A stretch of DNA of 49,711 bases from Actinomycetota bacterium (GTDB lineage Bacteria > Actinomycetota > UBA4738 > HRBIN12). The stretch is from the NCBI GenBank assembly GCA_036555125.1, contig DATBLY010000013.1, positions 1-49,711 of the forward strand, written 5' to 3'. Numbering within the stretch: position 1 is the stretch's first letter; every line of letters starts with the position of its first letter. The translations under genes were made by a program, and so were the position numbers. Shown here piece after piece: positions 11,861-40,387 of this stretch. Under the pieces are notes generated by a model. The model worked only from the letters and a program-made list of their open reading frames with translations, searched no databases and was not told the DNA's origin.

Positions 11861-12468
11861 ACGGCGGGGCGCTGAAGCGGGCGAAGCGGGAAGTGCGGCG
11901 CCGCGTGCTCGCCGCCCGGGACGCGATCGCGCCGACCGAGCTCGCCCGGACCGCCGAGCGGGTCGCCCGGCGCGTCGTCGACCTGCCCGAGCTGGCCGAC
12001 GCGCGGACCGTCCTCGCGTTCTGGTCCTTCGGCTCCGAGGTGCCCACCGCACCCCTGCTCGAGGCGTTGACGGGAGCCGGGCATCGCGTGCTCCTGCCGA
12101 GGATCGCGGGCGACGAGCTCGAGCTGCGGACCTGGTCCCCGGGCGACCCCCTCTCGGCGACGAGCTTCGGGGCGATGGAGCCGACGGACGGAGCGGTCGT
12201 CGATGCCGGCGAGGTCGATGTGGTCGTGACGCCTGCGGTCGCGTTCGATCGGATGGGTGGCCGCGTGGGCTACGGCCGTGGGTTCTACGACCGGCTGTTC
12301 CGCCGGACACGGCCCGATGCGTTCCGCCTGGGGATCGCGACGGATGAGCAGCTGGTGGACGGCCGGCTGCCGGCGGGCCCGTTCGATCTCCCCGTCCATG
12401 CGATCGTGACCGGATCCGGGGTCGTCCGTCCGGGGACGGCCGGGCCCGCGGCCGACCGCAAGGGTTGA
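11857..12468 (+). CDS. 5-formyltetrahydrofolate cyclo-ligase
   Basis: K.LR...L..R, FGSEVPT, and VVTPAVAFDRMGGRVGYGRGFYDR (the G.G.GYYDR signature). ATGA overlap at 11857..11860. Confidence 0.85.
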   Translation: MNGGALKRAKREVRRRVLAARDAIAPTELARTAERVARRVVDLPELADARTVLAFWSFGSEVPTAPLLEALTGAGHRVLLPRIAGDELELRTWSPGDPLSATSFGAMEPTDGAVVDAGEVDVVVTPAVAFDRMGGRVGYGRGFYDRLFRRTRPDAFRLGIATDEQLVDGRLPAGPFDLPVHAIVTGSGVVRPGTAGPAADRKG

Positions 12469-12548
12469 ACGAAGGTTCAAACGCGCGGTATAACGCCCGG
12501 ACCGACCGGAGGCCGGCCCGGCCTCGGGCGACCGCATCCGGAGGACGG

Positions 12549-13646
12549 GTGAGCGAGAGCAGGCGGACCGCGTTCCACGCCGTCACGTCGCGGACGGCGG
12601 CCGACTACATGGAGGAGGCCGGCTGGCTCTGGGTCACGAACTACGGCGACCCGGAGGCCGAGTATCGCGCCGTGCGGGACGGCGTCGGGATGTGGGACCT
12701 CTCGCCGCTGAACAAGTGGGAGTTCCGCGGGCCGGACGCCGTCGAGGCCGCACAGCGGGTGCACACGAACGACGTCCTCGCGATGCGCGACGGCCAGGTG
12801 CGCTACGGGGCCTTCGTCGACGAGGACGGGCTCCTGGTCGACGACGGCACGGTCTTCCGGTTCTCCGACGACCACCTGTGGGTGTGCACGAACGGCAACG
12901 ACCGCGCCGACTACTTCGCCGAGGCCACGAAGGGACTCGACGTGTCGGTCGACTACATCGCGCCCGAGCTGCCCAGCATGCAGATCCAGGGACCGCGGTC
13001 GCGCGATCTGGTCCGGACGCTCACCGATGCGCCCGTGGACGAGCTGCGCTACTTCACGTTCTTCCCCCAGCCCGTCACGTTCGGCGGGGTGCCCGTCTGG
13101 CTCTCGCGAACCGGGTTCTCGGGCGAGCTCGGATACGAGGTCTTCCTGCGGCCCCAGCACGCGGAAGCGCTCTGGGACGCGGTCGAGGCCGCCGGCGCTA
13201 CGCCGTACGGCGTCGACATCATCGAGCCGATCCGGGTCGAGACCGGGATGATCGTCACGGACTACGACTACGAGGCGCATCAGCGCACGCCGTTCGACCT
13301 GGGGCTCGACCGGATGGTCGCCCTCGACGGCGAGGGCGAGTTCATGGGGAAGGAGAAGCTCCGGGAGGTGGCGAACGATCCACCGAACCGGTTCAAGACG
13401 GTGCGCTTCGAGGGGGAGCGCCTGCCCGCGTACGGCGCGCCGATCTCGATCGACGGGGCCGAGGTCGGCGTGCTCACCTCGCCGGCCACGAGCCCGCGCT
13501 ACGGGGGCCTGGGGCTCGCCATCCTCCGGACCGACGTCGCGGCGGAGGGTCGCCGCGTCGAGGTGGCGAGCGACGAGGGCCCGATCGCCGGGACCGTCGA
13601 CGTGCTCGCCGTGCACGACCCGGGGAAGCGCCGCCCGCGGAGCTGA
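12549..13646 (+). CDS. Aminomethyltransferase (GcvT) family protein, paralog A
   Basis: DLSPLNKWEFRGPDA, VRYGAFVDEDG...DDG, MQIQGPRSRD, RTGFSGELGYEVF. GTG 12549 is preceded by GGAGGA. Confidence 0.85.
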   Translation: MSESRRTAFHAVTSRTAADYMEEAGWLWVTNYGDPEAEYRAVRDGVGMWDLSPLNKWEFRGPDAVEAAQRVHTNDVLAMRDGQVRYGAFVDEDGLLVDDGTVFRFSDDHLWVCTNGNDRADYFAEATKGLDVSVDYIAPELPSMQIQGPRSRDLVRTLTDAPVDELRYFTFFPQPVTFGGVPVWLSRTGFSGELGYEVFLRPQHAEALWDAVEAAGATPYGVDIIEPIRVETGMIVTDYDYEAHQRTPFDLGLDRMVALDGEGEFMGKEKLREVANDPPNRFKTVRFEGERLPAYGAPISIDGAEVGVLTSPATSPRYGGLGLAILRTDVAAEGRRVEVASDEGPIAGTVDVLAVHDPGKRRPRS

Positions 13647-13683: not shown

Positions 13684-14775
13684 ATGAACGACGAGCGACG
13701 CTCGCCGCTGCACGACGCTCAGATCGCGATGGGCGCCGAGTTCATGTGGGAGGACGGGTGGCCCTGGACCAACAAGGTCACCGATCCGATGGCCGAGTAC
13801 GAAGCGATCCGGACCGCGACCGGGATCTGGGATCTGTACTCGACCTGCAAGTACGAGGTCACGGGCGCGGACGCGGGGCGGCTGATCCAGCGCCGGTTCA
13901 CGAACGACGTCTCGGCGATGACGGACGGCTCGGTGCGCTACGGGGCGTTCGTGAACGCCGACGGGAACATGGTCGACGACGGCAACGTGTACCGGTTCGC
14001 ACCCGACCGCTACTGGGTGATGATCAACACGGCCGACCTCGAGGGGTGGTTCCGAGAGACCGCCGACGGTCTGGATGCGACGGTGGAGCATCGGACCGAC
14101 GACCTGCCGATGATCTCGGTCCAGGGGCCGACGTCGCGCGACCTGATGCAGGGGCTGACCGACGCCGACCTGTCCTCGCTCGGCTACTTCCGCTTCTGGC
14201 CCGACGCCGTGACGGTGGGGGGCGTGAGCGCGACCGTGCTCCGCACGGGGTTCTCGGGCGAGCTGGGGTTCGAGCTCGTCACCGACGTCGCGTCCGTCGT
14301 GCCGCTCTGGCAGGCGCTCGCCGCCGCGGGCGCGGTGCCGTTCGGCCTCGAGGCGATCGACCTGGCACGGACCGAGGTGGGCCTGATCATCATCGCGCTC
14401 GACTACCAGCCGGGCGAGACGGACCCCTACGACCTGTCGATGGACCGGTTCATCAAGGCCGGCACCGAGTGCGTCGGGGCCCGGGCGCTCGCGGCCTACG
14501 GCGCCAACCCGCCGAAGCGGTTCAAGACGCTCCGGATCGAGGGCGACACGGCCCCGGAATACGGCGCGTCGGTGATGCTCGAGGGGGAGCAGGTCGGGAC
14601 CGTCACCTCGCCGGCGATCTCGCCGCGCCTCGGCACGATCGGCCTCGCGGTCCTCGACGCCGCGGTGTCGGACGACGGGCGGCGACTGGACGTGGCGGTC
14701 GGCGACGGCACGGTGGGGGCAGACGTGGCCCCGCTCAACCTGTACGACCCGGAGCGTCGCAAGCCGCGCGCCTGA
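13684..14775 (+). CDS. Aminomethyltransferase (GcvT) family protein, paralog B
   Basis: Same architecture as paralog A: VRYGAFVNADGNMVDDG, ISVQGPTSRD, RTGFSGELGFEL. Roughly 40% identity to paralog A by eye. Confidence 0.85.
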   Translation: MNDERRSPLHDAQIAMGAEFMWEDGWPWTNKVTDPMAEYEAIRTATGIWDLYSTCKYEVTGADAGRLIQRRFTNDVSAMTDGSVRYGAFVNADGNMVDDGNVYRFAPDRYWVMINTADLEGWFRETADGLDATVEHRTDDLPMISVQGPTSRDLMQGLTDADLSSLGYFRFWPDAVTVGGVSATVLRTGFSGELGFELVTDVASVVPLWQALAAAGAVPFGLEAIDLARTEVGLIIIALDYQPGETDPYDLSMDRFIKAGTECVGARALAAYGANPPKRFKTLRIEGDTAPEYGASVMLEGEQVGTVTSPAISPRLGTIGLAVLDAAVSDDGRRLDVAVGDGTVGADVAPLNLYDPERRKPRA

Positions 14776-15333: not shown

Positions 15334-17004
15334 TCAGAACAACCCGACGGTGCGGCCGGCCTCGTCGATGTCGACGTCCATGAACGCCGGCGTCTTGCCG
15401 AGGCCCGGCATCCGCTGCATGTCCCCGCACAGGACCACGACGAACCCCGCCCCGGCCGCGGGGACGACGCCGCGGACGGGCAGACGGAACCCACGTGGCC
15501 GGTTGAGCAGGCCCGGGTCGTGCGAGAGCGAGAGGTGCGTCTTCGCCATGCAGACCGGGACGGTGCCGAACCCGAGGGCGTCCATCCGCTCGAGATCCCG
15601 CTCGGCCTGGGGGAGGTAGTCGACGCCGTCGGCGCCGTACAGGCGGGTCGCGATCGTCTCGATCTGCTCCCGGAGCGGCGTGTCGTCCGGCGTCAGGAAC
15701 GTGAAGGCGTTCGGCCGGTCGCAGGCCGCCACGACCGCGTTCGCGAGGTCGACGGCGCCCTCGCCTCCGTCGGCGAACCCGCGGTTCACGACGACGGTCT
15801 CGGCGCCGGCGGCGGTCGCGAGCTCCTGGATCAGCGCGAGCTCGGCGGCCGTGTCGGTCGGGAACGCGTTGATCGAGACGACGCACGGCAGACCGTAGGC
15901 GCGGGTGATCTCGACGTGCGCGGACAGGTTGTCGATCCCGCGCCGCAGTGCCTCGAGGTCCTCCTCACCCAGGCGGTCGAACGCCATCCCCCCGTGCGAC
16001 TTCGTGGCGCGGACCGTGGTCACCAACACCGCCGCGCTCGGGCTGAACCCCCCGAACCGGCAGACGATGTCGCAGAACTTCTGCAGCCCGAGGTCGGAGG
16101 CGAACCCGGCCTCGGTCACGACGTAGTCCGCCAGCTTCAACGCGACCCGGTCCTCGATGATCGAGTTGTTCGCGTGGGCGATGTTGCCGAAGGGGCCCGC
16201 GTGGATCAGCACGGGCTGATGCTCCAGCGTCTGCACGAGGTTGGGGGCGATCGCGTCCTTCATGATCACGGTCATCGCCCCGGCCACCCGCAGGTCCTCG
16301 GCGGTGACCGACCGGCCGTCGCGCGACTCCGCGACGACGATCCGGCCGAGGCGGGTCCGCAGGTCGTGCAGGTCGCTCGCGAGCGCGAAGACGGCCATCA
16401 CCTCCGACGCGGCGGTGATCACGAACGCGTTCTCGCGCGGGACGCCGTGCGGCTTGCCGCCGAGGCCCACGACCGTGTACCGGAGCTCCCGGTCGTTCAC
16501 GTCGAGCGTCCGGGGCCACGTGATCGTCCGCGGGTCGATGTCCAACGGGTTGCCGTTGAAGATGGACGCGTCCAGGGCCGCCGCGAGCAGGTTGTGGGCG
16601 GCCGTGACGGCGTGGAAGTCGCCGTTCAGGTGCAGGTTGATCTCCTCCATGGGGACCACCTGCGCGTAGCCGCCCCCGTTGCCCCCGCCCTTGATCCCGA
16701 ACACCGGTCCCATCGAGGGCTCGCGCAGGCAGAGGATCACGTCCTCGCCGATCGCCCCGAGCCCCTGGGTGAGCGACACCGACGTGGTCGTCTTGCCCTC
16801 GCCGGCCTTCGTGGGCGTGATCGCGGTGGTGATGATCAGCTTGCCGTCGGGACGATCGCGGAGCCGATCCACGATCGCCGGCGAGACCTTCGCCCGGTAG
16901 CGGCCGAAGGGCTCCAGCTCCTCGGGAAGGATCCCCGCGGCGGCGGCGATCTCGTCGATCGGCCGCAGCTCCGCCTGCTGGGCGATCTCGAGTCCTGACC
17001 TCAC
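15334..17004 (-). CDS. fhs: Formate-tetrahydrofolate ligase
   Basis: LEIAQQAELRPIDEIAAAAGI, PTKAGEGKTTT P-loop, EAGFASDLG; full-length match to the Fhs pattern. I chose the GTG start at 17004 (GAGGAG 7 nt upstream), giving 556 aa. The track start at 17163 adds an R/P-rich tail. Confidence 0.92.
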   Translation of the reverse strand: MRSGLEIAQQAELRPIDEIAAAAGILPEELEPFGRYRAKVSPAIVDRLRDRPDGKLIITTAITPTKAGEGKTTTSVSLTQGLGAIGEDVILCLREPSMGPVFGIKGGGNGGGYAQVVPMEEINLHLNGDFHAVTAAHNLLAAALDASIFNGNPLDIDPRTITWPRTLDVNDRELRYTVVGLGGKPHGVPRENAFVITAASEVMAVFALASDLHDLRTRLGRIVVAESRDGRSVTAEDLRVAGAMTVIMKDAIAPNLVQTLEHQPVLIHAGPFGNIAHANNSIIEDRVALKLADYVVTEAGFASDLGLQKFCDIVCRFGGFSPSAAVLVTTVRATKSHGGMAFDRLGEEDLEALRRGIDNLSAHVEITRAYGLPCVVSINAFPTDTAAELALIQELATAAGAETVVVNRGFADGGEGAVDLANAVVAACDRPNAFTFLTPDDTPLREQIETIATRLYGADGVDYLPQAERDLERMDALGFGTVPVCMAKTHLSLSHDPGLLNRPRGFRLPVRGVVPAAGAGFVVVLCGDMQRMPGLGKTPAFMDVDIDEAGRTVGLF

Positions 17005-17081: not shown

Positions 17082-18902
17082 GTGGACATCCCGTCCTTCC
17101 TACGGTCGCACCCGCCGTTCGACGAGCTGGACGAGGACGAGCTGGCGAGCGTCGTCCTGGCAACCCGGATCGAGTTCTTCCCCGAGTACCAGGTGATCCT
17201 CGCCCAGGACGGCGAGCCCGCGAGCTTCCTCTACGTCGTGCGGAAGGGATCCGTCGAGGTGCTGGACGGCGACCTGGTCATCGACCTCCATCAGGAGGGA
17301 GAGGTGTTCGGGTTCGTCTCGCTGCTGACCGGGGAGCGACCGGCGCTCACCGCCCGCGCCGCGGAGGAGACGATCTGCTACCTGATCGAGCCGGCGGTCG
17401 CGGAGGACATCCTCGCCACCAAGGAGGGCGCGTCGTTCCTGTCCCGGAGCGTCCGCCGACGGGAGCTGAAGGTGCTCGAGCGCGCGGAGCCGCGCGCCGA
17501 CCCCTGGACGCTGCCGGCGCGGACGCTCGTGGCCCGGCGGCCGGTCGCGGTGGCCGAGACCGACACCGTCCGCGCCGTCGCGGAGCGCATGGCGACCGAG
17601 CGCGTGTCGTCGGCGCTCGTGCGCGTCGGGGAGGCCTGGGGGATCGTCACCGACCGCGACCTGCGAACGCGGGTCCTCGCCGAAGGAAGGGGTCCCGAGC
17701 ACCTCGTGGCGGAGGTCGCATCCACCCCGCTCCTCTCGCTCCCCGAGGACGCCACGATCGGCGACGTGCTGGGGACGATGCTCGAGCGCGGGATCCACCA
17801 CGTGCCGCTCGCCGACGGATCCGGTGCGATCGTCGGCGTGCTCACGGACACGGACCTGATGGCGCTGGAGCGTCGTTCGGCGTTCCAGGTCCGACGCGGG
17901 ATCGAGCGGGCCGCGGATCCCCGGGCGGCGTCGCGGCTCGCGCTCGCCGTCCCCGAGACGACGGCCGACCTCATCGAGGCCGGGGTCGACGCCCTCGAGG
18001 TCGCCCACGTCATCACGGTGACCACCGACGTCCTGACGACCCGCCTGCTGTCGCTCGCGATCGAGCGGCTGGGCGAGCCCCCCGGGGGATGGGCGTGGCT
18101 CGCGCTCGGCGGGGAGGCGCGCCAGGAGCTCTCGCTCGTGTCCGATCAGGACAACGCGCTCGTCTTCGCGTCGGACGAGGACCCGTCGGCGGACGCCTAC
18201 TTCGCGCGGCTCGCGGCCGTCGTGAACGACGGGCTGGCGTCGGCCGGGATCCCCCGGTGCCGATCCGGCGTGATCGCCTCGAACGTCGCCTGGCGGGGCT
18301 CGGTCGAGCGCTGGTGCGGCCGGTTCCGGTCGTGGATCGCCGACCCGGACGGCTCCCGGATGCCGGCGGTCGCCCTCGACCATCGGGTCGTCGCCGGGGC
18401 GCTGGACGTCGACGAGGCCTTCGCCCCGATCCTGGCGGACGGCTCGGCGGATCGCGCGTGGCTCCGGCACCTGGCGCGGACGGCGGTGGAGCGCCCCCCG
18501 CCCAAGGGCTTCCTCCGTGACGCCGTGATCGAGGCGCGCGGCACCAGCGCGGTGGTGCTCGATGCCAGGGACGCCGGCATCGCGACGATCACGGCCCTCG
18601 CCAGGATCCAGGGCCTCCGTGCGGGGGTCCACGACCGGCGGACGGTGCGTCGCCTGCGGGGCGCCGTGGCCGGCGGCCGGATCGGCGGCGAGGTCGGGAC
18701 GGCGCTCGAGGAGGCGTTCCAGCTGCTCTGGAGGATCCGGCTCGGCCACCAGGTGGCCCGCGTGCGCGCGGGCGCACCCCCCGACGACGACGTCGATCCG
18801 CGCTCGCTGGGCCCGCTCGCGCGCCAGGCCCTGAAGGAGGCCTTCCGGCTGATCGATCGCGCACAGGGGCTCCTGGCGCTCGAGCTGGATCTGCGTCGGT
18901 GA
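17082..18902 (+). CDS. Signal-transduction protein: cNMP-binding domain + CBS pair + DUF294-type (GlnD-like) nucleotidyltransferase
   Basis: N-terminal cNMP fold (FLYVVRKGSVEV..GEVFG). Two CBS modules (VSSALV..GIVTDRDL and IHHVPL..GVLTDTDL). Pol-beta NTase motif GGEARQELSLVSDQD at 18108..18152, plus a C-terminal helical DUF294_C-like region. Confidence 0.85.
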   Translation: MDIPSFLRSHPPFDELDEDELASVVLATRIEFFPEYQVILAQDGEPASFLYVVRKGSVEVLDGDLVIDLHQEGEVFGFVSLLTGERPALTARAAEETICYLIEPAVAEDILATKEGASFLSRSVRRRELKVLERAEPRADPWTLPARTLVARRPVAVAETDTVRAVAERMATERVSSALVRVGEAWGIVTDRDLRTRVLAEGRGPEHLVAEVASTPLLSLPEDATIGDVLGTMLERGIHHVPLADGSGAIVGVLTDTDLMALERRSAFQVRRGIERAADPRAASRLALAVPETTADLIEAGVDALEVAHVITVTTDVLTTRLLSLAIERLGEPPGGWAWLALGGEARQELSLVSDQDNALVFASDEDPSADAYFARLAAVVNDGLASAGIPRCRSGVIASNVAWRGSVERWCGRFRSWIADPDGSRMPAVALDHRVVAGALDVDEAFAPILADGSADRAWLRHLARTAVERPPPKGFLRDAVIEARGTSAVVLDARDAGIATITALARIQGLRAGVHDRRTVRRLRGAVAGGRIGGEVGTALEEAFQLLWRIRLGHQVARVRAGAPPDDDVDPRSLGPLARQALKEAFRLIDRAQGLLALELDLRR

Positions 18903-19549
18903 GGGGACGGCGCCCGACCCGCCCGCCGCGTCCGTCGCGACGGGCGTGGGGTCAGCCGTGGCGGGACGCCGACTACGTCGCGCTGGACTTCGAGGCGACG
19001 GGGCTCGACCTGAGCCGGGACCGGATCATCTCCTTCGGCACGGTCCCCATCCGGATGGGCAGGATCGAGGTCGGCGGGTGCCGCTATCGGATGGTCGATC
19101 CGGAGGGCCGCGTCCCGTCGCCCCGATCGGTGACCGTGCACGGGATCCGTCCGGTCGACCTGCGGGGCGCGCGCTCGCAGGCGTCGGCGGTGCGAGAGCT
19201 CGGGGATGCGCTCGCGGACCGGTTCCTGGTCGCGTGGTACGGGCGGGTCGAGGCCGGGTTCCTGTCGGCGATGTTCCGCGTCTCGGCCGATCGATGGACG
19301 CGGACGATGATCGACGTCCGAGACCTGATGCTCGCGCTCGAGGGTTCACAGGCGGAGGAACGGTCGCTCACGGCCGCGGCCACGCGCTACGGGGTCCCCG
19401 TCGCAGACCCGCACCACGCGCTCGACGACGCCCTCGTGACGGCGCAGCTCTTCCTCGTGGTGGCGGAGCGTCTCGTCCGTCGCGACGGCCTCGCGACCGT
19501 CGGCGACCTCATGCGCGTGCGAGCACCGAGCGCGCGGCGCGGCCACTGA
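18899..19549 (+). CDS. DnaQ-like 3'-5' exonuclease (DEDDh family)
   Basis: Exo I is ALDFEATGL and Exo III is HHALDDALVTAQLF. Exo II is divergent (VAWYGRVEAGFL). GTGA overlap with the upstream gene. Confidence 0.8.
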   Translation: MRGRRPTRPPRPSRRAWGQPWRDADYVALDFEATGLDLSRDRIISFGTVPIRMGRIEVGGCRYRMVDPEGRVPSPRSVTVHGIRPVDLRGARSQASAVRELGDALADRFLVAWYGRVEAGFLSAMFRVSADRWTRTMIDVRDLMLALEGSQAEERSLTAAATRYGVPVADPHHALDDALVTAQLFLVVAERLVRRDGLATVGDLMRVRAPSARRGH

Positions 19550-19632: not shown

Positions 19633-20472
19633 ATGCCCGACGAGACCGCGCTCCGACGCAACGTGCGCCCGACCCGGGTGGTGTCCGTGCGGGACGGGAG
19701 CCGATCCGAGCGCGGCGATACGCTCGCCGCCGAGGAGCCGCTCGAGATCCGCGTCGAGGGTCCCGGCCAAGATCCGGTTCAGGTCGCGGTCACGATGCGG
19801 ACCCCGGGTGGGGACTTCGAGCTCGCCGCTGGGTTCCTGTTCACCGAGGGCCTCGTGGCGCCGGGCGACATCCGTCGCGTCGCCTACTGCGACGACCTGG
19901 ACGACGCGGAGCAGCGCTACAACGTGGTCACGGTCACGCTCGCACGCCCGTTCGACGCGGACCGTCTCCGGCGGAACTTCTACGCCACCTCGTCGTGCGG
20001 GGTCTGCGGCAAGGCGGCCCTGGACGATGTCGCGGTGCGATGCGCCCCGGTGGGGGCCGGGCCCGTGGTGCCCGCGGCGCTCCTGACCGCGCTTCCGGAC
20101 CGGCTCCGGGCGGCGCAGCGGGTCTTCGAGCGGACGGGCGGCCTGCACGCCGCCGGGCTGTTCACGGCCGAGGGCGAGCCCATCGCGGTCCGCGAGGACG
20201 TCGGCCGTCACAACGCCGTGGACAAGGTGATCGGCGAACGGCTCCTGGCCGGCGAGGTGCCGCTCGCCGAGCGCATCCTGCAGGTGAGCGGCCGGGCGAG
20301 CTTCGAGATCGTCCAGAAGGCGGCGGTCGCGGGCATCCCGATCGTGGCCGCGGTCAGCGCGCCGTCGTCGCTCGCGGTCGAGGCCGGCGAGCGGTTCGGA
20401 CAGACGATCGTGGGATTCGTCCGAGACGGCGGCGCGAACGTCTATTCGCACCCCGAAAGGATCGCCGGGTAG
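19633..20472 (+). CDS. fdhD: Formate dehydrogenase accessory sulfurtransferase
   Basis: SSCGVCGK active-site loop, GGLHAAGLF, VGRHNAVDK, SGRASFEIVQKA. ATG 19633 in frame with track ORF 18946..20472. Confidence 0.9.
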   Translation: MPDETALRRNVRPTRVVSVRDGSRSERGDTLAAEEPLEIRVEGPGQDPVQVAVTMRTPGGDFELAAGFLFTEGLVAPGDIRRVAYCDDLDDAEQRYNVVTVTLARPFDADRLRRNFYATSSCGVCGKAALDDVAVRCAPVGAGPVVPAALLTALPDRLRAAQRVFERTGGLHAAGLFTAEGEPIAVREDVGRHNAVDKVIGERLLAGEVPLAERILQVSGRASFEIVQKAAVAGIPIVAAVSAPSSLAVEAGERFGQTIVGFVRDGGANVYSHPERIAG

Positions 20473-21289: not shown

Positions 21290-21799
21290 TCAGGACGGCT
21301 CGCGGACCCGGGGCCGCCAGTCGTAGAGCACCGACGTCCGCAGCACGAGGTCTTGGATCGAGCGGTTCTCCCGGCTGACGCCGGCCCACAGGAGGCCGAA
21401 CGGCACGAGCACGCAGAAGACCGCGCGCACGAGCGCCGTGCCGAACCGGAGGCGGTCACCGGTCCTGCCTACGACCCGCAGCCCCATCACCTGGTTACCC
21501 AGGGTCCGTCCCGAGGTCGTCCACGCGACCGCGAAGTAGACCACGTGCAGGGCCTCGGCGAACAGCAGGGCGGCGGCGAAGCCGGGCGTCGGACGGGTGA
21601 ACGAGGATCCCTGCCAGAGCAGCTTGACCCCTGCCCAGCCCACGTAGGTCGCGACGACGCCCGTGAAGACCAGGGCCAGGTCCAGGACGTTCGCGACGAT
21701 CCGGCTGAACAGGCCGGCTCGACGTCCCTGCAGACCCCGGGCTTCCGCCGGGATCACGTCCACGTGGATCCGCTTCTCCGGCTCCACGGTGGCGCTCAC
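21290..21799 (-). CDS. RDD-family membrane protein
   Basis: RRAGLFSRIVANVLDLAL..., GRTLGNQVMGLRVV, SIQDLVLRTSV: the RDD pattern with 3 TM segments. Confidence 0.8.
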   Translation of the reverse strand: MSATVEPEKRIHVDVIPAEARGLQGRRAGLFSRIVANVLDLALVFTGVVATYVGWAGVKLLWQGSSFTRPTPGFAAALLFAEALHVVYFAVAWTTSGRTLGNQVMGLRVVGRTGDRLRFGTALVRAVFCVLVPFGLLWAGVSRENRSIQDLVLRTSVLYDWRPRVREPS

Positions 21800-22800
21800 C
21801 CGGCCGGATCCTCCGGTGGCGTCGGGTCACCGGGCCCGTCGGGCGCTTCGGTGAGCTGCTCGACCTCCTCCGCGGCGCGCTCTCGCCGACGCATCAGCAC
21901 GCGGTCCACGATGTAGGCGAGCCGGCGGTCGACCTCTGCCGAGAGCATCCGCACGCTGCGGACCGTCTCCGAGGTGACGGCCCCGGTGGACTCGCGGATC
22001 AGCTCCGGCACGTCCACTTCGCCGATCACCCGGTCCGCGATCCCGATCAGGTCGACCCGTCCGACGGCCACGTCGAGGTCCACCCGGCGGACGATCTCGT
22101 CGACGTCGATCCGGTCCACGATCGCGTCCAGGTCGATCTTGTCCACGATCGCGTCCAGGTCGATCCGATCGGCGACGAGGGTCGTCAGGTCGAGCTGCTC
22201 GACGATCCCGTCGACGAGGCGTGGCATCAGGTCGGCGACGAACGCCGCGGCGGCCGCCTCGTGCTCGGGCCGGGCCTCGGACCAGACGCCGTTGAACCGG
22301 TCGATCCCGCGGGTGATCGGCGCGGCCCGCTCGCGCAGGCTGGGGGCGCTCGTCGCGAAGGAGAGCAGGGGGGCCAGGGATCCGGCGAGGGTGGACACGC
22401 TCCGAACGGCCAGGCGGGCCGTCTCCATGCCGAGCCCGAGGGTCGCGCCCGCGAGCGCGGATCCGGCGACCGGTGTGTCGCCGGGCCGGCCGGGCATCGT
22501 GCGCTCGAGCGCGTTCGAGACCGCCGTCGCGGCCACGGACGCCATCCCGACCGCCACGCGCAGCCCGTGCTCGACGAGGGCATCCAGCTCGGCGGTCGCC
22601 GAGGCACGCCCGACGGCGTCGTCCGGCTCGAGCTCATCGAGGGGCGCGGGCCTGGTCTCGACGGAGCCTGGGTCCGGTCCGTGGCGAACGTCGTCCGGCT
22701 CCTCCTCGGGAGGAGCGGAGAATGGTGGGGACGGGAGCTCGACCACGTTGTCGATCGACTCCTCCCCGTCGCCGATCGGGATCTGCTCCATGGGGGGCAT
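21796..22800 (-). CDS. Hypothetical protein with an acidic N-terminus, an Ala-rich hydrophobic core and about 7 nonapeptide (V/I)DLDxIVxR repeats
   Basis: High-GC3 ORF with a GTGA overlap onto the RDD gene. Repeat block: LDLTTLVADRIDLDAIVDKIDLDAIVDRIDVDEIVRRVDLDVAVGRVDLIGIADRVIGEVDVPELIRE. I took the start at MPPMEQ (22800); 22791 and 22845 are possible. Confidence 0.65.
   Translation of the reverse strand: MPPMEQIPIGDGEESIDNVVELPSPPFSAPPEEEPDDVRHGPDPGSVETRPAPLDELEPDDAVGRASATAELDALVEHGLRVAVGMASVAATAVSNALERTMPGRPGDTPVAGSALAGATLGLGMETARLAVRSVSTLAGSLAPLLSFATSAPSLRERAAPITRGIDRFNGVWSEARPEHEAAAAAFVADLMPRLVDGIVEQLDLTTLVADRIDLDAIVDKIDLDAIVDRIDVDEIVRRVDLDVAVGRVDLIGIADRVIGEVDVPELIRESTGAVTSETVRSVRMLSAEVDRRLAYIVDRVLMRRRERAAEEVEQLTEAPDGPGDPTPPEDPAG
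22114..22167 (-). repeat. Near-perfect 27-bp tandem duplication (2 copies, 25/27 identical) inside the nonapeptide-repeat region
   Basis: gtccacgatcgcgtccaggtcgatc occurs at 22114 and again at 22141. It encodes IDLDAIVDK / IDLDAIVDR. Confidence 0.9.
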
Positions 22801-22904
22801 GATGGACCTTCGCCGGGGGGGTGACCACCCGGGTCGCGGCCGCACGGCGTCACGCGGACCCCACGTAGGATAGGCGCGGAACCTCGGTGGAAAGGAGCCG
22901 CTCG

Positions 22905-24839
22905 ATGCAGGACGGGCTCACGCGACTCACCGAGCCGATGGTCCGCGACGACGGCGTGCTGCGCGTCGCCACCTGGGACGAGGCGCTCGATCGCGCCGCG
23001 GCCGGGCTGCGCGCCGCCACGGAGCGGAACGGCGGCAACGGGGTCGGCCTGTTCAGCTGCTCGAAGGCCACGAACGAGATGAACTTCGTCGCACAGAAGT
23101 TCGCCCGTCAGGTCTTGCGCAGCAACAACATCGACAGCTGTAACCGCACCTGACACGCGCCGAGCGTGGTCGGTCTGGCCACGGTGTTCGGTGCCGGAGG
23201 CGGTACCAGCTCATACGGAGAGGTCGAGGAGACGGACCTCATCCTGCTCTGGGGGTCGAACGCGCGCGCCGCGCATCCGATCTTCTTCCACCACGTGCTG
23301 AAGGCGATCCACCGCGGCGCACGGATGATCGCGGTCGACCCCCGGCGGACGGAGTCGACGGAGTGGGCGGACCTGTGGCTGGGGATCGACGTCGGCACGG
23401 ACATCGCCCTGTCGAACACGATCGCGCGCGAGATCATCGTGAACGACCTCCAGCACCACGCGTTCGTCGAGGGCGCCACGACCGGCTTCGAGGCGTACCG
23501 CGACTCCGTGATGGACTGGACCCTCGAGCGCGGCGAGGCCGTCACGGGCGTCCCCGCCGAGGCGATCCGCGAGGTCGCGCACGCCTACGCGAGGGCCGAC
23601 CGCGCCGTGATCTGCTGGACGCTCGGGATCACCGAGCACCACAACGCCGTCGACAACGTCCTGTCGCTGATCAACCTCAGCCTGCTGACCGGTCACGTCG
23701 GACGCTACGGCAGCGGGGTGAACCCGCTGCGCGGCCAGAACAACGTGCAGGGCGGCGGCGACATGGGCGCGATCCCGAACAAGCTGCCCGGCTTCCAAGA
23801 CATCGAGCGGGACGCCGACGCGCGCGCCCGCTTCGAGGCGGCGTGGGGCGTGCCGATCACGCCGCGGTACGGGTGGCACCTCACGCAGATGTTCCTGGCG
23901 ATGGAGCGCGACGAGCTCCGCGCCGTCTACGTGATCGGCGAGAACCCCGTGGCCTCCGAGGCCGACAACCAGCACGCGAAGCACCTGCTGGAGACGCGCG
24001 ACTGCCTGATCGTGCAGGACATCTTCCTGACGCAGACGGCCGAGATCGCCGACGTCGTGTTCCCGGCCTCGGCCTCGTGGGCCGAGAGCGAGGGGACCGT
24101 CACGAACAGCGAGCGGCGCGTGCAGCGCGTCCGCAAGGCGCTGGACCCACCCGGGAACGCGAAGGACGACATCTGGATCATCGCGCGGCTGGCGGAGCGG
24201 CTCGGCGTGGACTGGGGCGAGGTCACGGCGGCGAGCGCGTGGGAGGAGCTGCGCACGCTCTCGCCGATGCACGCGGGGATGAGCTACGAACGGCTCGAGG
24301 CGCTCGGCGGCCTGCAGTGGCCGTGCCCGGACGAGTCGCATCCGGGCACGACGTTCCTGCACGGGCGCCTCTGGGCGTTCGACGATCCGCGGGCCCAGGG
24401 CACGAAGGCGCCGTTCAGTGTCGTGGTCGACGACCCGCCGGTCGACGCGCTGTCGCCCGAGTACCCGATCCGGCTGACCACGGGCCGGCGTCTGGACTCG
24501 TACAACACCGGCGTGCAGAGCGGTGGCTACACGTCGCCGTTGCGGCGGCCGGAGTCGATCGAGCTCTCCCCGGAGGACGCCGCCGAGCTCGGCGTGGGCG
24601 AGGGCGAGCGCGTGCGGGTGTCGTCGCGGCGCGGCTCGGTCGAGGCCCCGGTCCACGTGACCCCGTCCGTCCGTCCCGGCCTCGCGTTCATGACGCTGCA
24701 CTTCCCGGACCAGGTCGAGACGAACCGGCTCACGATCGAGGCGACCGATCCGAAGTCGGGCCCCGCGGAGTTCAAGGCGACGGCGGTGCGCGTGGACAAG
24801 CTGTCGGAGCGAGCCGCGGTCACGGGTCGCGCCGAGTGA
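22905..24839 (+). CDS. fdhA: Formate dehydrogenase catalytic (Mo/W-bis-MGD) subunit, selenocysteine-containing (TGA at 23151..23153 read as Sec). It lacks the N-terminal Fe-S domains.
   Basis: Track ORFs 22887..23153 and 23166..24839 are in the same frame, separated only by TGA + HAPS. Read-through gives FVAQKFARQVLRSNNIDSCNRT-U-HAPSVVGLATVFG, matching the FdhF Sec region. Downstream come NPLRGQNNVQGGGDMGA and the rest of the MopB and C-terminal barrel regions. ATG 22905 is preceded by AAAGGAG. Confidence 0.88.
23165..23183 (+). promoter_or_regulatory. Candidate bacterial SECIS hairpin
   Basis: CGUGGUC-GGUCU-GGCCACG: a 7-bp stem (one G-U pair) with loop GGUCU, starting 11 nt after the UGA. 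E. coli fdhF has the same spacing and the same GGUC loop core. Confidence 0.6.
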
Positions 24840-24849
24840 GGGAGGCCCG

Positions 24850-26726
<1,877 letters not shown>

Positions 26727-26730
<4 letters not shown>

Positions 26731-27725
26731 GCGATCCCGTCCCGGTCGCGCCGCCCCGCCGCCTGATCGACCTCGAGGTCGACGGGCGCGCCGTGCGGGT
26801 GCCGGAGGGGGACACGATCCTCGCCGCGTGCCGGGCCGAGGGGGTCGACACGCCGACGCTGTGCTTCGCCGACAACCTCACGCCGGTGAATGCCTGCCGG
26901 GTCTGCGTCGTCGAGGTCGAGGGTTCTCGCGCCCTCGTCCCCGCCTGCTCGCGCGCCGCCGAGCCCGGGATGGTCGTGCGGACCGACACGGATCGGGTGC
27001 GGCACTCCCGCAGGCTCGTGCTGGAGTTCCTCGCCTCGAGCGTCGACGTCGAGCTCACGTCGCCCGAGGTGCACCGGTGGATGGAGGCGTACGGGAGCGA
27101 CCCCGACCGCTTCGGCGCGCGGATGGACCCGCGGCCCGCGGGGGAGCGCGACGCCCGTGGGCCGGGACATCACCACGCGCCCGAGCCCGCCGTCGCCGAG
27201 ACCGTCGAGCAGCCGGTCAAGATCGACAACGAGCTCTACGTGCGCGACTACTCGCGCTGCATCCTCTGCTACAAGTGCGTCGAGGCGTGCGGGGTCGATG
27301 CGCAGAACACCTTCGCGATCGCGGTGGCGGGGCGGGGATTCGACGCGAGGATCTCGACGGAGTATGCCGTTCCGCTCGGCGAGTCCGCCTGCGTCTACTG
27401 CGGGAACTGCATCGGCGTGTGCCCCACGGGCGCGCTGATGTTCCGCACCGAGCACGAGATGCGCGAGGACGGCACCTGGGACGAGGCGGAGCAGACCGTG
27501 ACCGACACGATCTGCCCGTACTGCGGCGTGGGGTGCGAGCTCGAGCTCCACGTGCAGGACGACCGGATCGTGAAGGTGACATCGCCCTGGGACAACGACG
27601 TGACGAACGGGCACCTGTGCATCAAGGGGCGCTTCGGGTACGCGTTCGTCCAGGCCCGCAAGGGCGACGATCCCGCCGCCCGGAAACGGCGCGATCGGAG
27701 CCCGGGAGGCGGAGGGGGAACCTAG
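26727..27725 (+). CDS. Fe-S module corresponding to the N-terminus of an FdsA/NuoG-type FDH alpha subunit (2Fe-2S, His-ligated 4Fe-4S, 2x[4Fe-4S] ferredoxin, MopB-type 4Fe-4S)
   Basis: LCF...ACRVCVVEV...PAC; CILCYKCVEAC...CVYCGNCIGVCP; ICPYCGVGCELELHV...GHLCIKGRFGY. GTGA overlap with the upstream gene. The gene ends right where the catalytic domain would begin. Confidence 0.88.
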
Positions 27726-27765: not shown

Positions 27766-28383
27766 GTGACGGGGATCGTGCTCGCGGGCGGCCGCTCGGC
27801 CCGGTTCGGTCGCGACAAGCTGTCGGTCCCGGACCGCGGCCGCCCGCTCCTGCACCACGCCGTGTCCGCGGTCGGAGCCTGCTGCGAGGAGGTCCTGGTC
27901 GCGGTCGCGCCCGGCCGAGACCCGGCCGACCCGGTGGTGGACCCGGAGGCGCTGGCCGGCCTGGTCCGCGGGCGAGCCCGCGTCGTCCGCGACCCGGCCG
28001 AGGGCGGCGGTCCGCTCGTCGGCGTGCGGACCGGCCTGGAGGCCGCGGCGACCGACGTCGCGCTGGTCGTCGGCGGGGACATGCCCGACCTGGTGCCCGC
28101 GGTCCTCGATGACCTCCTGGAACGGCTGTCGATCGGACACGCGGCGGCCGTGGCGCTCGACGACGGCGCCGGGGTCCGCCCGCTGCCCGCCGCGGTGCGG
28201 ACGGCGCCGGCCCTCGCGGCCGCCCGGGAGCTGCTCGCGCGCGGCGAGGGATCGCTTCGGGCGCTCCTGCGGGCCCTCGACGTCCTCGCGGTCGATCGCG
28301 AGACCTGGGCGAGGCTGGACCCGGACGCCGCCACCCTCCGCGACGTGGACAGGCCCGCCGATCGTGACCGCGGGGGAGGCTAG
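27766..28383 (+). CDS. mobA: Molybdenum cofactor guanylyltransferase
   Basis: GIVLAGGRSARFGRDK, GPLVG, VVGGDMP motifs. Confidence 0.85.
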   Translation: MTGIVLAGGRSARFGRDKLSVPDRGRPLLHHAVSAVGACCEEVLVAVAPGRDPADPVVDPEALAGLVRGRARVVRDPAEGGGPLVGVRTGLEAAATDVALVVGGDMPDLVPAVLDDLLERLSIGHAAAVALDDGAGVRPLPAAVRTAPALAAARELLARGEGSLRALLRALDVLAVDRETWARLDPDAATLRDVDRPADRDRGGG

Positions 28384-32837: not shown

Positions 32838-33857
32838 ATGCGCCTCGGCATCCTGACCGGCGGTGGTGACTGCCCCGGTCTGAACGCGGCGATCCGGTCC
32901 GTCGTGCGTTCCGCCGACGACGCGAGGGTCGATGTGCTCGGCTTCCGCGACGGGTGGCGGGGCGTGCTCGATGGCACCGCGCACGAGCTGTCGCTCGAAG
33001 ACGTCCGGGGCATCCTGCCGCGCGGCGGAACGATCCTCGGGACCTCCGGCGTCCAGCCGCACCGGGCGGAGCGAGGGCCCGCGCTCGTTCGGGAGGCGCT
33101 CGAGGTGCACGGACTGGACGGCTTCCTCGTGGTCGGCGGCGAGGGCACGATGGGGGCGTCCGCGGCCCTGTCGGACGTCCCCGTGATCGGCATCCCCAAG
33201 ACGATCGACAACGACATCCGCGGCACGGACGCGAGCATCGGGTTCTGGACCGCCGCGCAGATCGCCACCGATCTGATCGACCGCCTCTACAGCACCGCGG
33301 AGAGCCATCGCCGGGTCATGGTGTGCGAGGTCATGGGCCGCACCGCCGGCTGGATCGGCCTCACGGCGGGCGTCGCGGCCGGGGCCGACGTGATCCTGAT
33401 CCCGGAGTGCCGGTTCGACATCCAGGCCGTGGCGCGCCGGATCCGCCGGGTGCACTCGGAACGGCGGCCGTTCTCGATCGTCGTCGTGTCCGAGGGGGCG
33501 ATGCCCGTCGACGGCACGCTCGAGCTGCCCCCCTACGAGCTGGACGAGAACGGCTGGCCGAAGCTCGGCGGCATCGGCCGGATCGTCGCCGAGGCGATCG
33601 AGGATCTGACGCGCTCGGAGACCCGCGTCACGACGCTGGGGCACGTCCAGCGCGGCGGCTCGCCGGTCGCGTTCGATCGCGTCCTGGCGACGCGGCTGGG
33701 CGCGGCCGCGGTGGCGGCCGCGCGGGAGGGACGCTGGGGTGTCATGGTCGGGGCGCGGGGGACCGAGATCCACGAGACGCCCCTGGCCGAGGTCGCGGTC
33801 GGGGCCTCGGTCGTGCCCCCCGAACGGTGGCAGATCCCAGAGGTCCGCTGCGACTGA
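32838..33857 (+). CDS. pfkA: 6-phosphofructokinase (GGEGT type, likely ATP-dependent)
   Basis: GILTGGGDCPGLNA, VVGGEGT, PKTIDNDI, EVMGR, GHVQRGG. Confidence 0.9.
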   Translation: MRLGILTGGGDCPGLNAAIRSVVRSADDARVDVLGFRDGWRGVLDGTAHELSLEDVRGILPRGGTILGTSGVQPHRAERGPALVREALEVHGLDGFLVVGGEGTMGASAALSDVPVIGIPKTIDNDIRGTDASIGFWTAAQIATDLIDRLYSTAESHRRVMVCEVMGRTAGWIGLTAGVAAGADVILIPECRFDIQAVARRIRRVHSERRPFSIVVVSEGAMPVDGTLELPPYELDENGWPKLGGIGRIVAEAIEDLTRSETRVTTLGHVQRGGSPVAFDRVLATRLGAAAVAAAREGRWGVMVGARGTEIHETPLAEVAVGASVVPPERWQIPEVRCD

Positions 33858-33887: not shown

Positions 33888-35036
33888 ATGAAGATCGGGG
33901 TCCTGACCGGCGGCGGCGACGTCCCGGGCCTGAACGCCTGCATCAAGGCCGTCACGGTCCGGGCCGAGGAGGAGGGCCACGACGTCGTCGGCATCCGCCG
34001 GGGATGGGCGGGGCTGCTCGAGACCGATCCCGACGACCCCACGACGATCGGGGCGAACGTCGTCGATCTGGACCCGTCCTCCGTCCGGACGATCGACAGG
34101 ACCGGCGGCACGATCCTGCACACGTCGCGGACGAACCCGGCGAAGGTCAAGGCCGGCGAGGAGCCCGCGTTCCTGCGCGACGGGGGCGACGCAGGCTCCC
34201 CGCGCGACCATACGGCGCACGTCGTGCGTGTGATCGAGCACCTGGGGATCGACGCGCTGGTGCCCATCGGCGGCGACGACACGCTGTCGTTCGCGCTCCG
34301 CCTGCACGACGAGGGCGTCCCGGTGATCGCGATCCCGAAGACGATGGACAACGACGTCCACGGCACGGACTACTGCATCGGGTTCTCGACGGCGATCACC
34401 CGAACGGTGATCTTCATCCACCAGCTGCGCACGAGCGCCGGCTCACACGAGCGGCTCGCGGTCGTGGAGGTGTTCGGCCGCTACAGCGGCGAGACGTCGC
34501 TGGTCTCCGCCTACCTCTCGGGGGTGGAGCGCGCGATCATCTCCGAGGTTCCGTTCGACGTCGAGAAGCTGGGGGAGCTCCTGGTCAAGGACAAGCGGTC
34601 CAACCCCAGCAGCTACGCCATGATGACGATCTCCGAGGGCGCCACGATGATCGGCGGCGAGATGATCAAGGGGGGTGCCGAGGACGCCTACGGGCATCAG
34701 AAGCTCGGCGGGATCGGCCTCGTGACGGCGGAAGCCCTGAAGGAGATCACGGGCGAGGGGCTCATCTACCAGCAGCTCGGCTACTTGATGCGGTCGGGGA
34801 GCCCGGACTCGCTGGACCTCATGGTCGCCACGAACTACGCGGTGATGGCGGCGGATCTCGTGATCGAAGGCGTGCACGGTCGCCTGGTGGCCCTGCGGAG
34901 CGGCAACTACACGAACGTGCCGCTCGACGTGACCCGGCAGGGCGTCAAGCGCGTGGACGTCGAAGCGCTGTACGACGTCGAGGGCTACCGGCCGAAGATC
35001 CGACACGTCGACGGCAAGCCGATGTTCCTGTACTGA
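33888..35036 (+). CDS. Phosphofructokinase paralog (GGDDT type, PPi-dependent-like signature)
   Basis: [44 protein letters not shown]. Confidence 0.85.
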
Positions 35037-36747: not shown

Positions 36748-37581
36748 TCAGCCGGCGAGCGACCGCAGCGTCGCGATGTCGCGGGCGTGACGCTCGGCGT
36801 CCCCCGGCGTCTCGAGGATGAAGGGCACCGCGGCCAGCTCCGGCCGGGAGACGATCGCCCGCCAGCCCTCGGCCCCGATGTGGCCGTCGCCGATGTTCGC
36901 GTGGCGATCGCGGCGCTCCCCGCACCCGTACATCGAATCGTTCGCGTGCACGAGGGCGAGCCGGTCGGCGACACCCTCGGTCCGCAGCTCGTCGACGACC
37001 GCGGCGACGCCCTCCTCGGTGTCGAGGGCGTAGCCCGCGGCGAACAGGTGGCAGGTGTCCAGGCAGAGCCCCAGCTCGGGTGCCTCGGACGCTTCGAGCA
37101 GCCGCGACGCCTCCGGGATCGTGGAGGCCACCGCCCCCGACGTGCCGGCCATCAGCTCGACGAGGATCCGCACGCGCTCGGCCTCGCCTGCGACGAGACC
37201 GAGCGAGAGCGCGGCGCGCTCGAGCGCGGCCGTCCGCTCGGCCGGGCCGCCCGACCCCGCGTGGACGATCAGCAGGTCGATCCCGAGCGCGTCGCAGGCG
37301 CGAACCGTCGATGCCGCCAGGGCCCGGGTCTTCGCCAGGAACTCCCGGCTGGGCGATGCGATGTTCACGAGGTACGGGGCGTGGGCGACGAGCGGCCCGA
37401 GGCCCGCCGCCGCCCACTCCCGCCGGAAGGCTTCGGCGTCCTCGGGCGAGGTCCGCGGCCCGACCCATCCGCGGGGGTTGGACACGAAGATCTGGGCGCA
37501 GTCGGCGCCGCGGACCCGGCACGCCTCGATCGCGCCGGCGGCACCGGCGGACCCGCGCCGCACGTGCGCGCCGATCCTCAC
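36748..37581 (-). CDS. nfo: Endonuclease IV (AP endonuclease family 2)
   Basis: RIGAHV, HAPYLVNIAS, LIVHAGS, LDTCH, HANDS, ILETP. Confidence 0.9.
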   Translation of the reverse strand: MRIGAHVRRGSAGAAGAIEACRVRGADCAQIFVSNPRGWVGPRTSPEDAEAFRREWAAAGLGPLVAHAPYLVNIASPSREFLAKTRALAASTVRACDALGIDLLIVHAGSGGPAERTAALERAALSLGLVAGEAERVRILVELMAGTSGAVASTIPEASRLLEASEAPELGLCLDTCHLFAAGYALDTEEGVAAVVDELRTEGVADRLALVHANDSMYGCGERRDRHANIGDGHIGAEGWRAIVSRPELAAVPFILETPGDAERHARDIATLRSLAG

Positions 37582-39563: not shown

Positions 39564-40270
39564 GTGACCTGCCGGTCCTCGACCGCGAGATCGGGGCCGA
39601 GCTGGCACGGATCGAGGCCGCGGTCGGAGCGGGTGAGACGGACCTCCGAGGGCTCGGGTTCTGGCGGATCGTGGCCCGCGTGAAGATCGACCGGATCCTG
39701 ATCGACCGTCACGCCGACCGGATCGGCAGGATCGACGCGGCCGCCTTCCGCCGGGCCGTCCGCCCGCGGTTCCCGGTCTGGTTGGGGAACACGGTCCTGC
39801 TCGCGGGGGCGGCCGTGAGCGGGGTCCTGATCGGGGTCGCCGGCGCGGTCGGCTCCCCGGGGTGGAAGGGCGTCTGGATCGTCGCCGCGGGGGTCGGCTG
39901 GGCCATCACGCTCCACTGTCCCACCCACTGGATCTTCGGATGGTTCGTCGGCGTGCGGTTCACCGACTACTTCTTCGGCGGACCGCCGCCGCCACGCCCG
40001 GGACTGAAGAGCGACTACGCGACCTACCTGCGTGCCGACCCGGGCAGCCGCGCCTGGATGCACGCCTCGGGCGCGATCGCGACCAAGCTCGCCCCGTTCC
40101 TGGCGCTGATCTTCGTCCGAGTGGTGGACGCGCCGTGGTGGGCGGCGGTCGTGCTGCTGGCCGTCGGGATCGGGCAGATCCTGACGGACGTCCGGTTCTC
40201 GACCGCATCGAGCGACTGGAAGAAGTTCGCCCGCGAGCGCCGCGTCGCGCGGGCGCGTGCCGACATCTGA
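39545..40270 (+). CDS. Membrane protein of unknown function (about 4 TM)
   Basis: GAGGAG lies 8 nt upstream of the ATG. GC3 is high from about 39566 onward. Hydrophobic segments include VLLAGAAVSGVLIGVAGAV, VWIVAAGVGWAITL, LAPFLALIFV and WWAAVVLLAVGIG. Confidence 0.65.
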   Translation: MAEARASDLPVLDREIGAELARIEAAVGAGETDLRGLGFWRIVARVKIDRILIDRHADRIGRIDAAAFRRAVRPRFPVWLGNTVLLAGAAVSGVLIGVAGAVGSPGWKGVWIVAAGVGWAITLHCPTHWIFGWFVGVRFTDYFFGGPPPPRPGLKSDYATYLRADPGSRAWMHASGAIATKLAPFLALIFVRVVDAPWWAAVVLLAVGIGQILTDVRFSTASSDWKKFARERRVARARADI

Positions 40271-40283
40271 CCCGGTATCCTCG

Positions 40284-40381
40284 TGCTCGGAACCGGGGAG
40301 CTCGGGACACCGGGCTGAGAGGCCGGCTGCGGACGCCGGCGACCCGACGAACCTGATCCGGGTAATGCCGGCGGAGGGAGC
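40284..40381 (+). promoter_or_regulatory. TPP (THI-box) riboswitch
   Basis: GGGGAGC...GGGCUGAGA....ACCCGACGAACCUGAUCCGGGUAAUGCCGGCGGAGGGA matches the THI element core. It sits directly upstream of thiE, and the GGAGGGAG RBS is part of the 3' end. Confidence 0.9.
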
Positions 40382-40387
40382 GGCAGG

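Follow-up and report, generated by a model that had tools for sequence, protein, structure and literature searches.

Within a 49,711-nt stretch of DNA from an Actinomycetota bacterium (contig DATBLY010000013.1 of assembly GCA_036555125.1, positions 1 to 49,711; hereafter the window), the gene for the catalytic subunit of a formate dehydrogenase (FDH) is interrupted at codon 83 by an in-frame UGA, which we read, with a probability of about 0.93, as a codon for selenocysteine (Sec) whose decoding would depend on SelB and a selenocysteine insertion sequence (SECIS). The UGA stands at the position where FDHs carry Sec or Cys and is universally conserved among the related loci, the hairpin that follows it is under selection at the nucleotide level, and the gene belongs to an FDH operon; these are direct observations. 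The elements on which the argument turns are these:

22892-22897, plus strand: ribosome-binding site AAGGAG, preceding ATG 22905.
22905-24839, plus strand: catalytic (molybdo/tungstopterin) subunit of formate dehydrogenase, a 644-codon open reading frame (ORF) with the in-frame UGA at codon 83.
23151-23153, plus strand: UGA, probably read as Sec, at the Mo/W ligand position equivalent to Sec140 of E. coli FdhH and followed by His; TGA in 80/80 relatives.
23166-23182, plus strand: conserved apical stem-loop of the putative SECIS, with a 6-bp stem (23166-23171/23177-23182) and a GGUCU loop (23172-23176), marked by covariation in the alignment.
23157-23194, plus strand: possible extended SECIS, with a lower helix (23157-23161/23190-23194) seen in the RNAalifold consensus and in the minimum free energy (MFE) fold.

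A list of ORFs splits the gene into two pieces in one frame, 22887-23153 and 23166-24839, the first ending with TGA 23151-23153; this is followed by CAC GCG CCG AGC and then by GTG at 23166. An earlier inspection of the letters alone (the sequence-only reading) had drawn attention to these two same-frame ORFs around one TGA, and its coordinates and spacer are borne out. The start is most likely ATG 22905, with AAGGAG ahead of it, rather than GTG 22887. Translation through the TGA gives ...NNIDSCNRT*HAPSVVGLATVFG... (asterisk, TGA), so that the peptide across codon 83 is CNRT-U-HAPSVVGLATVFGAGGGTSSYGEVEETDLILLWGSNAR. The same reading had claimed a residue-for-residue match to the Sec region of E. 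coli FdhF, and rightly: the K-12 fdhF gene reads TNNVDCCARV*HGPSVAGL, with its stop at codon 140. The Sec/Cys ligand and the catalytic His are both present, CNRT-U-HAPSV in the window comparing with CARV-U-HGPSV in E. coli fdhF and ...ciCHgPSV... in solved FDHs.

The rest of the protein is equally recognisable. Read through, it contains the Pfam domains Molybdopterin and Molydop_binding; its best solved relatives are cytoplasmic FDHs, 7BKB_D and 7QV7_S (both E about 1e-151), and residues 61-693 of E. coli FdhH (E=1e-127) and 308-931 of R. capsulatus FdsA (E=5e-121) align with it. The active-site motif NPLRGQNNVQG is conserved, GVNPLRGQNNVQG in the window aligning with the same motif in 7BKB_D and 7QV7_S; its Arg we take to be the equivalent of E. 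coli R333.

A scan of GTDB species genomes yielded at least 593 relatives, and the codon was tabulated in the best 80 loci of these, 68-87% identical in amino acid (aa) sequence. In all 80 the TGA is in frame and both flanks are conserved. The loci span at least five phyla: they come from Actinomycetota, Vicinamibacteria and other Acidobacteriota, Chloroflexota and Dormibacterota, with one metagenome-assembled genome (MAG) each of Chthonomonadia and Spirochaetia. The tabulation of TGA versus TGC that the sequence-only reading had proposed thus stands at TGA in 80/80 relatives, with TGC in a Cys-form homologue considered below. Of the 120 best protein matches (78-100% identity), 119 are calls of 532-571 aa that cover only the part after the TGA; the sole full-length protein, P0009 of 646 aa, has Cys at the position.

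Such conservation bears on three other explanations. A sequencing or assembly error at a cysteine codon would require one base, TGA differing by that much from TGC or TGT, and a true Cys form does exist in a related lineage; but four JGI metagenome assemblies, independent of one another and matching the window at 99.5-99.9% identity, have the same TGA, as do a syntenic MAG contig (ENA ERZ25039602, contig_15745; 92% aa identity) and 80 MAGs, which stem from different projects and were sequenced by different technologies, and we attach practically no credence to an error. Inactivation of the catalytic gene by a nonsense mutation, TGC or TGT to TGA, is what the 82-aa and 557-aa ORFs delivered by gene callers would suggest, and a pseudogene would sit easily in a window without sel genes. 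It fits poorly, though, with a TGA shared by all 80 relatives from several phyla, with two halves that are in frame and highly conserved, with fdhD, mobA and partner subunits that are intact and syntenic, and with the frozen synonymous sites and covariation that fall exactly at the hairpin; we regard it as highly improbable.

The third is that translation ends at the UGA and begins anew at GTG 23166, the products being an 82-aa peptide and a 557-aa enzyme without a metal ligand. The GTG in the window does lie 12 nt past the stop, and public annotations do give two ORFs. Nevertheless 59 of 81 sequences have GTC, which is no start codon, at codon +5. A re-initiation codon common to the relatives is therefore lacking, and their called starts vary, with downstream products of 532-571 aa. 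The downstream product would be without the Sec/Cys ligand and the catalytic His, and the two pieces form one continuous domain in all solved homologues. That the locus holds two genes is extremely improbable.

A change of the genetic code finds no footing either: TGA is the normal stop of 22 of the 32 confidently called genes in the window, and UGA is therefore not reassigned. Since the TGA is conserved, the assemblies agree and TGA is an ordinary stop, we consider pseudogene, assembly error and code change to be excluded for practical purposes. When the window was scanned for further in-frame stops with coding-like sequence on both sides, only ordinary adjacent genes came up. At 32838-33857 and 33888-35036 two phosphofructokinase paralogues lie next to one another in the same frame, with TGA and 30 nt between; each is a full-length phosphofructokinase, and the pair is on that account two separate genes, not a second recoding site.

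The hairpin begins 11 nt past the TGA and is composed of CGTGGTC (23165-23171), GGTCT (23172-23176) and GGCCACG (23177-23183); it is present, with its GGUC loop core, as the sequence-only reading described it. We examined it in an alignment of the 55 nt from the UGA, gap-free over 81 sequences, counting base pairs on the 70 distinct sequences. The GGUCU loop is invariant (81/81). Of the 7-bp stem originally claimed, the inner 6 bp are conserved; the seventh pair, 23165/23183, can form in the window but is not conserved, this outermost C-G pair holding in 36/70 distinct sequences. Spacing from UGA to apical loop is 18 nt, which fits a bacterial SECIS, being inside the reported range of 16-37 nt (PMC10778597). 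G23 and U24 of the hairpin loop (23173/23174) are as far from the UGA as their counterparts in E. coli fdhF, which in the usual fdhF numbering are the bases that contact SelB.

Selection on the RNA is seen first in its pairs. Pair 23168/23180, which couples the wobble position of a Val codon with that of an Ala codon, is C-G in 52 of the distinct sequences, G-C in 18 and broken in 0, and the switch between these states has been repeated, for they alternate among close relatives (L001 vs L002, L003 vs L005). Pair 23170/23178 goes from U-G to C-G where Val is replaced by Ala. Overall 93% of cells are paired; sliding the 3' partner lowers this to 27-67%, and the covariation score was reached by 0 of 500 shuffles. 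It is seen again in codon usage: codons +6 to +8 (Val GTC, Gly GGT, Leu CTG) are invariant in 81/81 sequences and, among the conserved four-fold codons of a 100-codon stretch, are the only ones with zero third-position entropy, nearby Gly, Ala and Val codons having 0.8-1.95 bits and four Gly codons downstream 1.3-1.95 bits. The three frozen four-fold sites fall precisely on the loop and the pair that closes it. The lower helix, 23157-23161/23190-23194, might conceivably be part of the SECIS as well: its variable pair, 23159/23192, forms in 46/70 distinct sequences, and the other four of its five pairs are uninformative because they are essentially fixed by coding.

The homologue with Cys shows the converse (protein P0009; locus L089, 10247-10301, JGI Ga0673044_0000090). 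It lies in a syntenic operon, has 74% aa identity, and carries TGC, not TGA. At the site of the former hairpin GGT has become GGC, CTG has become CTC and an Ala has become Asp, so that the hairpin is destroyed; the locus looks like a natural Sec-to-Cys conversion in which the SECIS has decayed. A covariance model trained on the Sec forms gives 72-81 bits on these and 30 bits on the Cys form. It does not match E. coli fdhF, and in 338 kb it made no other credible match; an extra one, at L001:1457-1519 (20.8 bits), was taken as chance, its TGA being out of frame with the local ORF. With the TGA in 80/80 relatives, covariation and frozen sites at the hairpin, and a Cys form that has lost the hairpin, the claim that the gene encodes a selenoprotein and is neither a pseudogene nor two genes is strongly supported.

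Several observations nevertheless weigh against Sec decoding, and they fall into two groups. The first concerns the hairpin as a structure. Compared with dinucleotide shuffles, four sub-windows gave folding z-scores of -1.4, +0.4, -1.1 and -1.4, and the hairpin by itself is unremarkable, not beyond chance, for DNA of 72% GC. Folding of the region had been put forward by the sequence-only reading as a check; the hairpin does appear in the MFE fold and in the consensus, but the energies are not exceptional relative to shuffles, and its significance comes from the comparative data, not from thermodynamics. No Rfam SECIS family was matched at E<=10 in the region 23050-23300, which returned only two chance microRNA hits; as positive controls E. 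coli fdhF scored 87.1 bits on SECIS_2 (RF01988) and 35.8 bits on SECIS_3 (RF01989), and Tsukamurella fdnG a weak 31.4 bits on SECIS_3. The window SECIS has a 5-nt GGUCU loop and no bulged U, whereas in that of E. coli fdhF the loop is of 4 nt (GGUC) and a U is bulged, and the bulged U is important for binding by E. coli SelB. The description 'fdhF-like SECIS' is therefore apt for position and GGUC core, and inapt as to the bulged U and to matching Rfam SECIS_2 or SECIS_3. The element is one that would work like the fdhF SECIS yet falls outside the curated Rfam families.

The second group concerns the decoding machinery. The 49.7-kb window yielded no tRNA-Sec, selA, selB or selD (the tRNA search gave no tRNA at all; about 40 ORFs were compared with Pfam), and a protein with the aminoimidazole ribonucleotide (AIR) synthase fold, at 41038-42123, is below the SelD cutoff, at 58 vs 125 bits. 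Actinobacterial relatives among the 80 loci are without sel genes within 10 kb of the FDH, as judged by tRNA-Sec search and tblastn, and a search for SelA homologues tied no sel genes to an actinobacterial genome carrying this FDH. As to the AIR-synthase-fold protein, it is also below the ThiL cutoff (84 vs 184 bits); it follows thiE (40388-41041), upstream of which is a thiamine pyrophosphate riboswitch (RF00059, 57.3 bits) at 40284-40396.

Sec machinery does accompany the orthologous FDH elsewhere. A tRNA-Sec is found within 10 kb of it in 5 of the 80 related loci, all of the Chloroflexota type (L046, L059, L072, L073, L079); in loci of this type selA, selB and selD flank the tRNA-Sec a few kb from the FDH, SelD scoring 347 bits. 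The sel region is upstream of the FDH, at 411-6174 in L046, and is listed also for L059, L072, L073, L079 and L050. The selA of L046 appears to be frameshifted after about residue 275, with one ORF running into selB, possibly through a long-read indel. Actinobacterial sel genes were found as selD-selA-selB on a Miltoncostaea oceani replicon and as fdnG-selD-selC-selA-selB on a Tsukamurella plasmid; the Miltoncostaea replicon and other plasmids hold no close homologue of the window FDH, identity reaching at most 44.5%. In the light of the conservation data, it is very unlikely that the source genome is devoid of sel genes.

These points matter most for the possibility that the UGA is decoded, though not as Sec: by near-cognate read-through (Trp, Cys, Arg), through reassignment, or with Cys inserted by the Sec machinery at low selenium. 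It draws on the facts that Sec machinery is only presumed for the source genome and that the SECIS is unlike the E. coli type and finds no Rfam match. Reassignment runs against the use of TGA as a normal stop by the window's genes; more generally, SelB-dependent decoding has as its hallmark a selected hairpin with a GGUC(U) loop placed as in fdhF, and the codon in question is the one position at which FDHs use Sec or Cys. We think non-Sec decoding very unlikely.

Sec decoding, then, is the reading we favour, and events at the locus can be pictured as follows. The mRNA just past the UGA would fold during translation into the SECIS with its 6-bp stem and GGUCU loop; SelB carrying Sec-tRNA(Sec), from selABCD genes presumably present in the source genome, would bind the loop and deliver Sec with the UGA in the A site, allowing synthesis of the full 644-residue protein. 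The product of 22905-24839 would be the catalytic subunit of a cytoplasmic, NAD(H)-linked Mo or W formate dehydrogenase of the FdsABG type, with Sec as the metal ligand adjoining the catalytic His. Its partners in the complex would be a NuoE-NuoF fusion and an Fe-S subunit, separately encoded, from which the [4Fe-4S] domain next to the pterin would come.

The genes for these partners, and others related to the enzyme, are:

24850-26730, plus strand: NuoE-NuoF fusion, an FdsG/FdsB-like NAD(H)/flavin mononucleotide (FMN) diaphorase module (Pfam 2Fe-2S_thioredx, Complex1_51K, SLBB and NADH_4Fe-4S; NCBIfam NuoF and NuoE).
26727-27725, plus strand: Fe-S subunit of 332 aa, corresponding to the N-terminal third of FdsA (Pfam 2Fe-2S, 4Fe-4S and a C-terminal Molybdop_Fe4S4).
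27766-28383, plus strand: MobA-like guanylyltransferase, for synthesis of the bis-molybdopterin guanine dinucleotide cofactor (Pfam NTP_transf_3).
19633-20472, plus strand: FdhD, the FDH accessory sulfurtransferase (NF001943, 305 bits vs a cutoff of 269; gene call in the near-identical contig L081).
15334-17004, minus strand: formate-tetrahydrofolate (THF) ligase, a metabolic link between formate and C1-folate metabolism (Pfam FTHFS, 802.9 bits; syntenic in many relatives).

Because NuoE/NuoF-like, NuoG-like Fe-S and catalytic modules are encoded together, along with FdhD, the locus is assigned by homology to the FdsABG-type FDHs, and linkage to NAD(H) presumably comes with that. Its alpha subunit is divided. 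The catalytic ORF has no N-terminal [4Fe-4S] (Molybdop_Fe4S4) domain and begins at the equivalent of FdhH residue 61, while the Fe-S subunit aligns to FdsA residues 25-303: the split falls at the junction of Fe4S4 and catalytic domains, and the catalytic half is encoded first, the Fe-S half after NuoE-NuoF. The NCBIfam profile TIGR01591 (Fdh-alpha) reflects this, matching the catalytic ORF over profile positions 52-672 (631.8 bits) and residues 261-311 of the separate Fe-S subunit over positions 1-51 (53.6 bits); neither polypeptide singly reaches the curated cutoff of 666.25 bits, and both together span the whole profile. Loss of an upstream Fe4S4 domain by frameshift was considered and rejected, ORF 21974-22873 being low-complexity nonsense and the real upstream gene lying on the minus strand. 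The order catalytic subunit, NuoEF, Fe-S subunit is kept in nearly all relatives with enough flank, and mobA is kept downstream in the actinobacterial ones. Since the Cys-form homologue has the same split FdsA architecture, the division of the alpha subunit is not a consequence of Sec use.

On the other side of the FDH genes is a neighbourhood of C1 metabolism that is conserved with FDH in relatives. It comprises tandem GcvT-like aminomethyltransferase paralogues (12465-13646 and 13684-14775), the formate-THF ligase (15334-17004, minus strand), a nucleotidyltransferase with cyclic nucleotide (cNMP)-binding, CBS and DUF294 domains (17082-18902) and an RNase T-like exonuclease (18899-19549). Divergent from the FDH operon, at 21796-22845 on the minus strand, is a gene for a 349-aa protein with DLD(A/E)IV-type repeats and no Pfam or NCBIfam match; past it (21290-21799, minus strand) come an RDD-domain protein and a VIT1 iron transporter, and the trio is conserved in a 92%-identical relative (L085).

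Elsewhere in the window, 3-3770 on the minus strand is taken up by a very large ORF that extends beyond the window end and contains 11 or more Calx-beta repeats (Pfam, 534 bits). Also on the minus strand are a WhiB-like protein with four Cys and a GVWGG motif (5642 to about 5910) and a PknB-type kinase with four PASTA domains (37578-39608); these two genes agree with an actinobacterial origin, as do the labels of related MAGs.

A Sec-containing FDH is in itself an expected, ordinary finding, because no bacterial selenoprotein is more widespread than Sec-FdhA, and Actinomycetota that have it are already on record. FdhA has been recorded in 822 organisms (PMC5029168), and in 67 of 75 Sec users, and is considered to maintain the Sec trait (PMC1794560); Sec use is documented in Actinobacteria (PMC1794560, PMC5029168), among which horizontal gene transfer has been reported (PMC5029168), and about 40% of 244 mycobacterial genomes have Sec-FDH together with sel genes (PMC13449736). 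The sequence-only reading had called Sec decoding uncommon in actinobacterial genomes, which in view of these mycobacteria (PMC13449736) and other Actinobacteria (PMC5029168, PMC1794560) was an overstatement.

What may be less ordinary is the combination. We suggest, tentatively and with the odds somewhat against it, that the gene represents an uncharacterised subclass of NAD-linked Sec-FDH, defined by a split and permuted FdsA and its own SECIS variant, spread across soil Actinomycetota, Chloroflexota, Acidobacteriota and Dormibacterota and mis-annotated in hundreds of MAGs. A literature search, not an exhaustive one, found no paper on the split/permuted FdsA, the near-invariant SECIS or the two-ORF mis-annotation. 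The SECIS is nearly invariant across phyla, and were the subclass real, such near-identity would imply co-transfer with a compatible SelB or a target that SelB recognises very broadly. There is a practical side: annotation divides this gene, and its orthologues in soil MAGs by the hundreds, into an 82-aa fragment and a 532-571-aa 'YjgC-like oxidoreductase', both wrong, and the two-ORF calls miss the catalytic Sec-His dyad and hide the selenoprotein. By implication, an abundant uncultured actinobacterial lineage would have the Sec-decoding trait and need selenium for its formate/CO2 metabolism. Of modest added value are a well-supported SECIS variant outside the reach of current Rfam models, and a conserved split/permuted FdsA of possible interest for the enzymology of FDH and CO2 reductase.

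Set beside known systems, the window gene belongs to the same family as E. coli FdhH (fdhF, Sec140; Rfam RF01988): the U-H dyad is aligned, the SECIS lies in the ORF right after the UGA, and in both genes the hexamer GGUCUG takes up positions 22-27, the count starting at the U of UGA. E. coli FdhH, however, has its own N-terminal Fe4S4 domain and acts in formate hydrogenlyase, whereas the window FDH is paired with a NuoEF module. The actinobacterial Sec-FDH-O/N of Mycobacterium and Tsukamurella resembles it in having the UGA and SECIS in FDH alpha, apparently as the main selenoprotein (PMC13449736). Those enzymes differ in being of the membrane-associated FdnG/FdoG type, of about 1060 aa, with FdnH- and FdnI-like partners, and in Tsukamurella-type loci sel genes are adjacent (fdnG, selD, tRNA-Sec, selA, selB), as they are not to the window FDH. 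The closest solved matches by sequence, 7QV7 (FdhF of hydrogen-dependent CO2 reductase) and 7BKB (formate dehydrogenase), are chains that carry their own Fe4S4 domain, the match beginning at about residue 62-64, and their partners are hydrogenase or other modules, not NuoEF. FdsA, for its part, is one polypeptide of 958 aa with an active-site Cys; relative to it, the window has a split alpha subunit, a permuted order, a fusion of NuoE with NuoF and, on our reading, Sec as the ligand. In make-up the window locus is nonetheless like the FdsGBA(CD) systems of R. capsulatus and Cupriavidus (PDB 6TG9/6TGA), sharing with them the NuoE-like, NuoF-like and NuoG-like Fe-S modules, the domain for the Mo-bis(pyranopterin guanine dinucleotide) cofactor, and FdhD (=FdsC).

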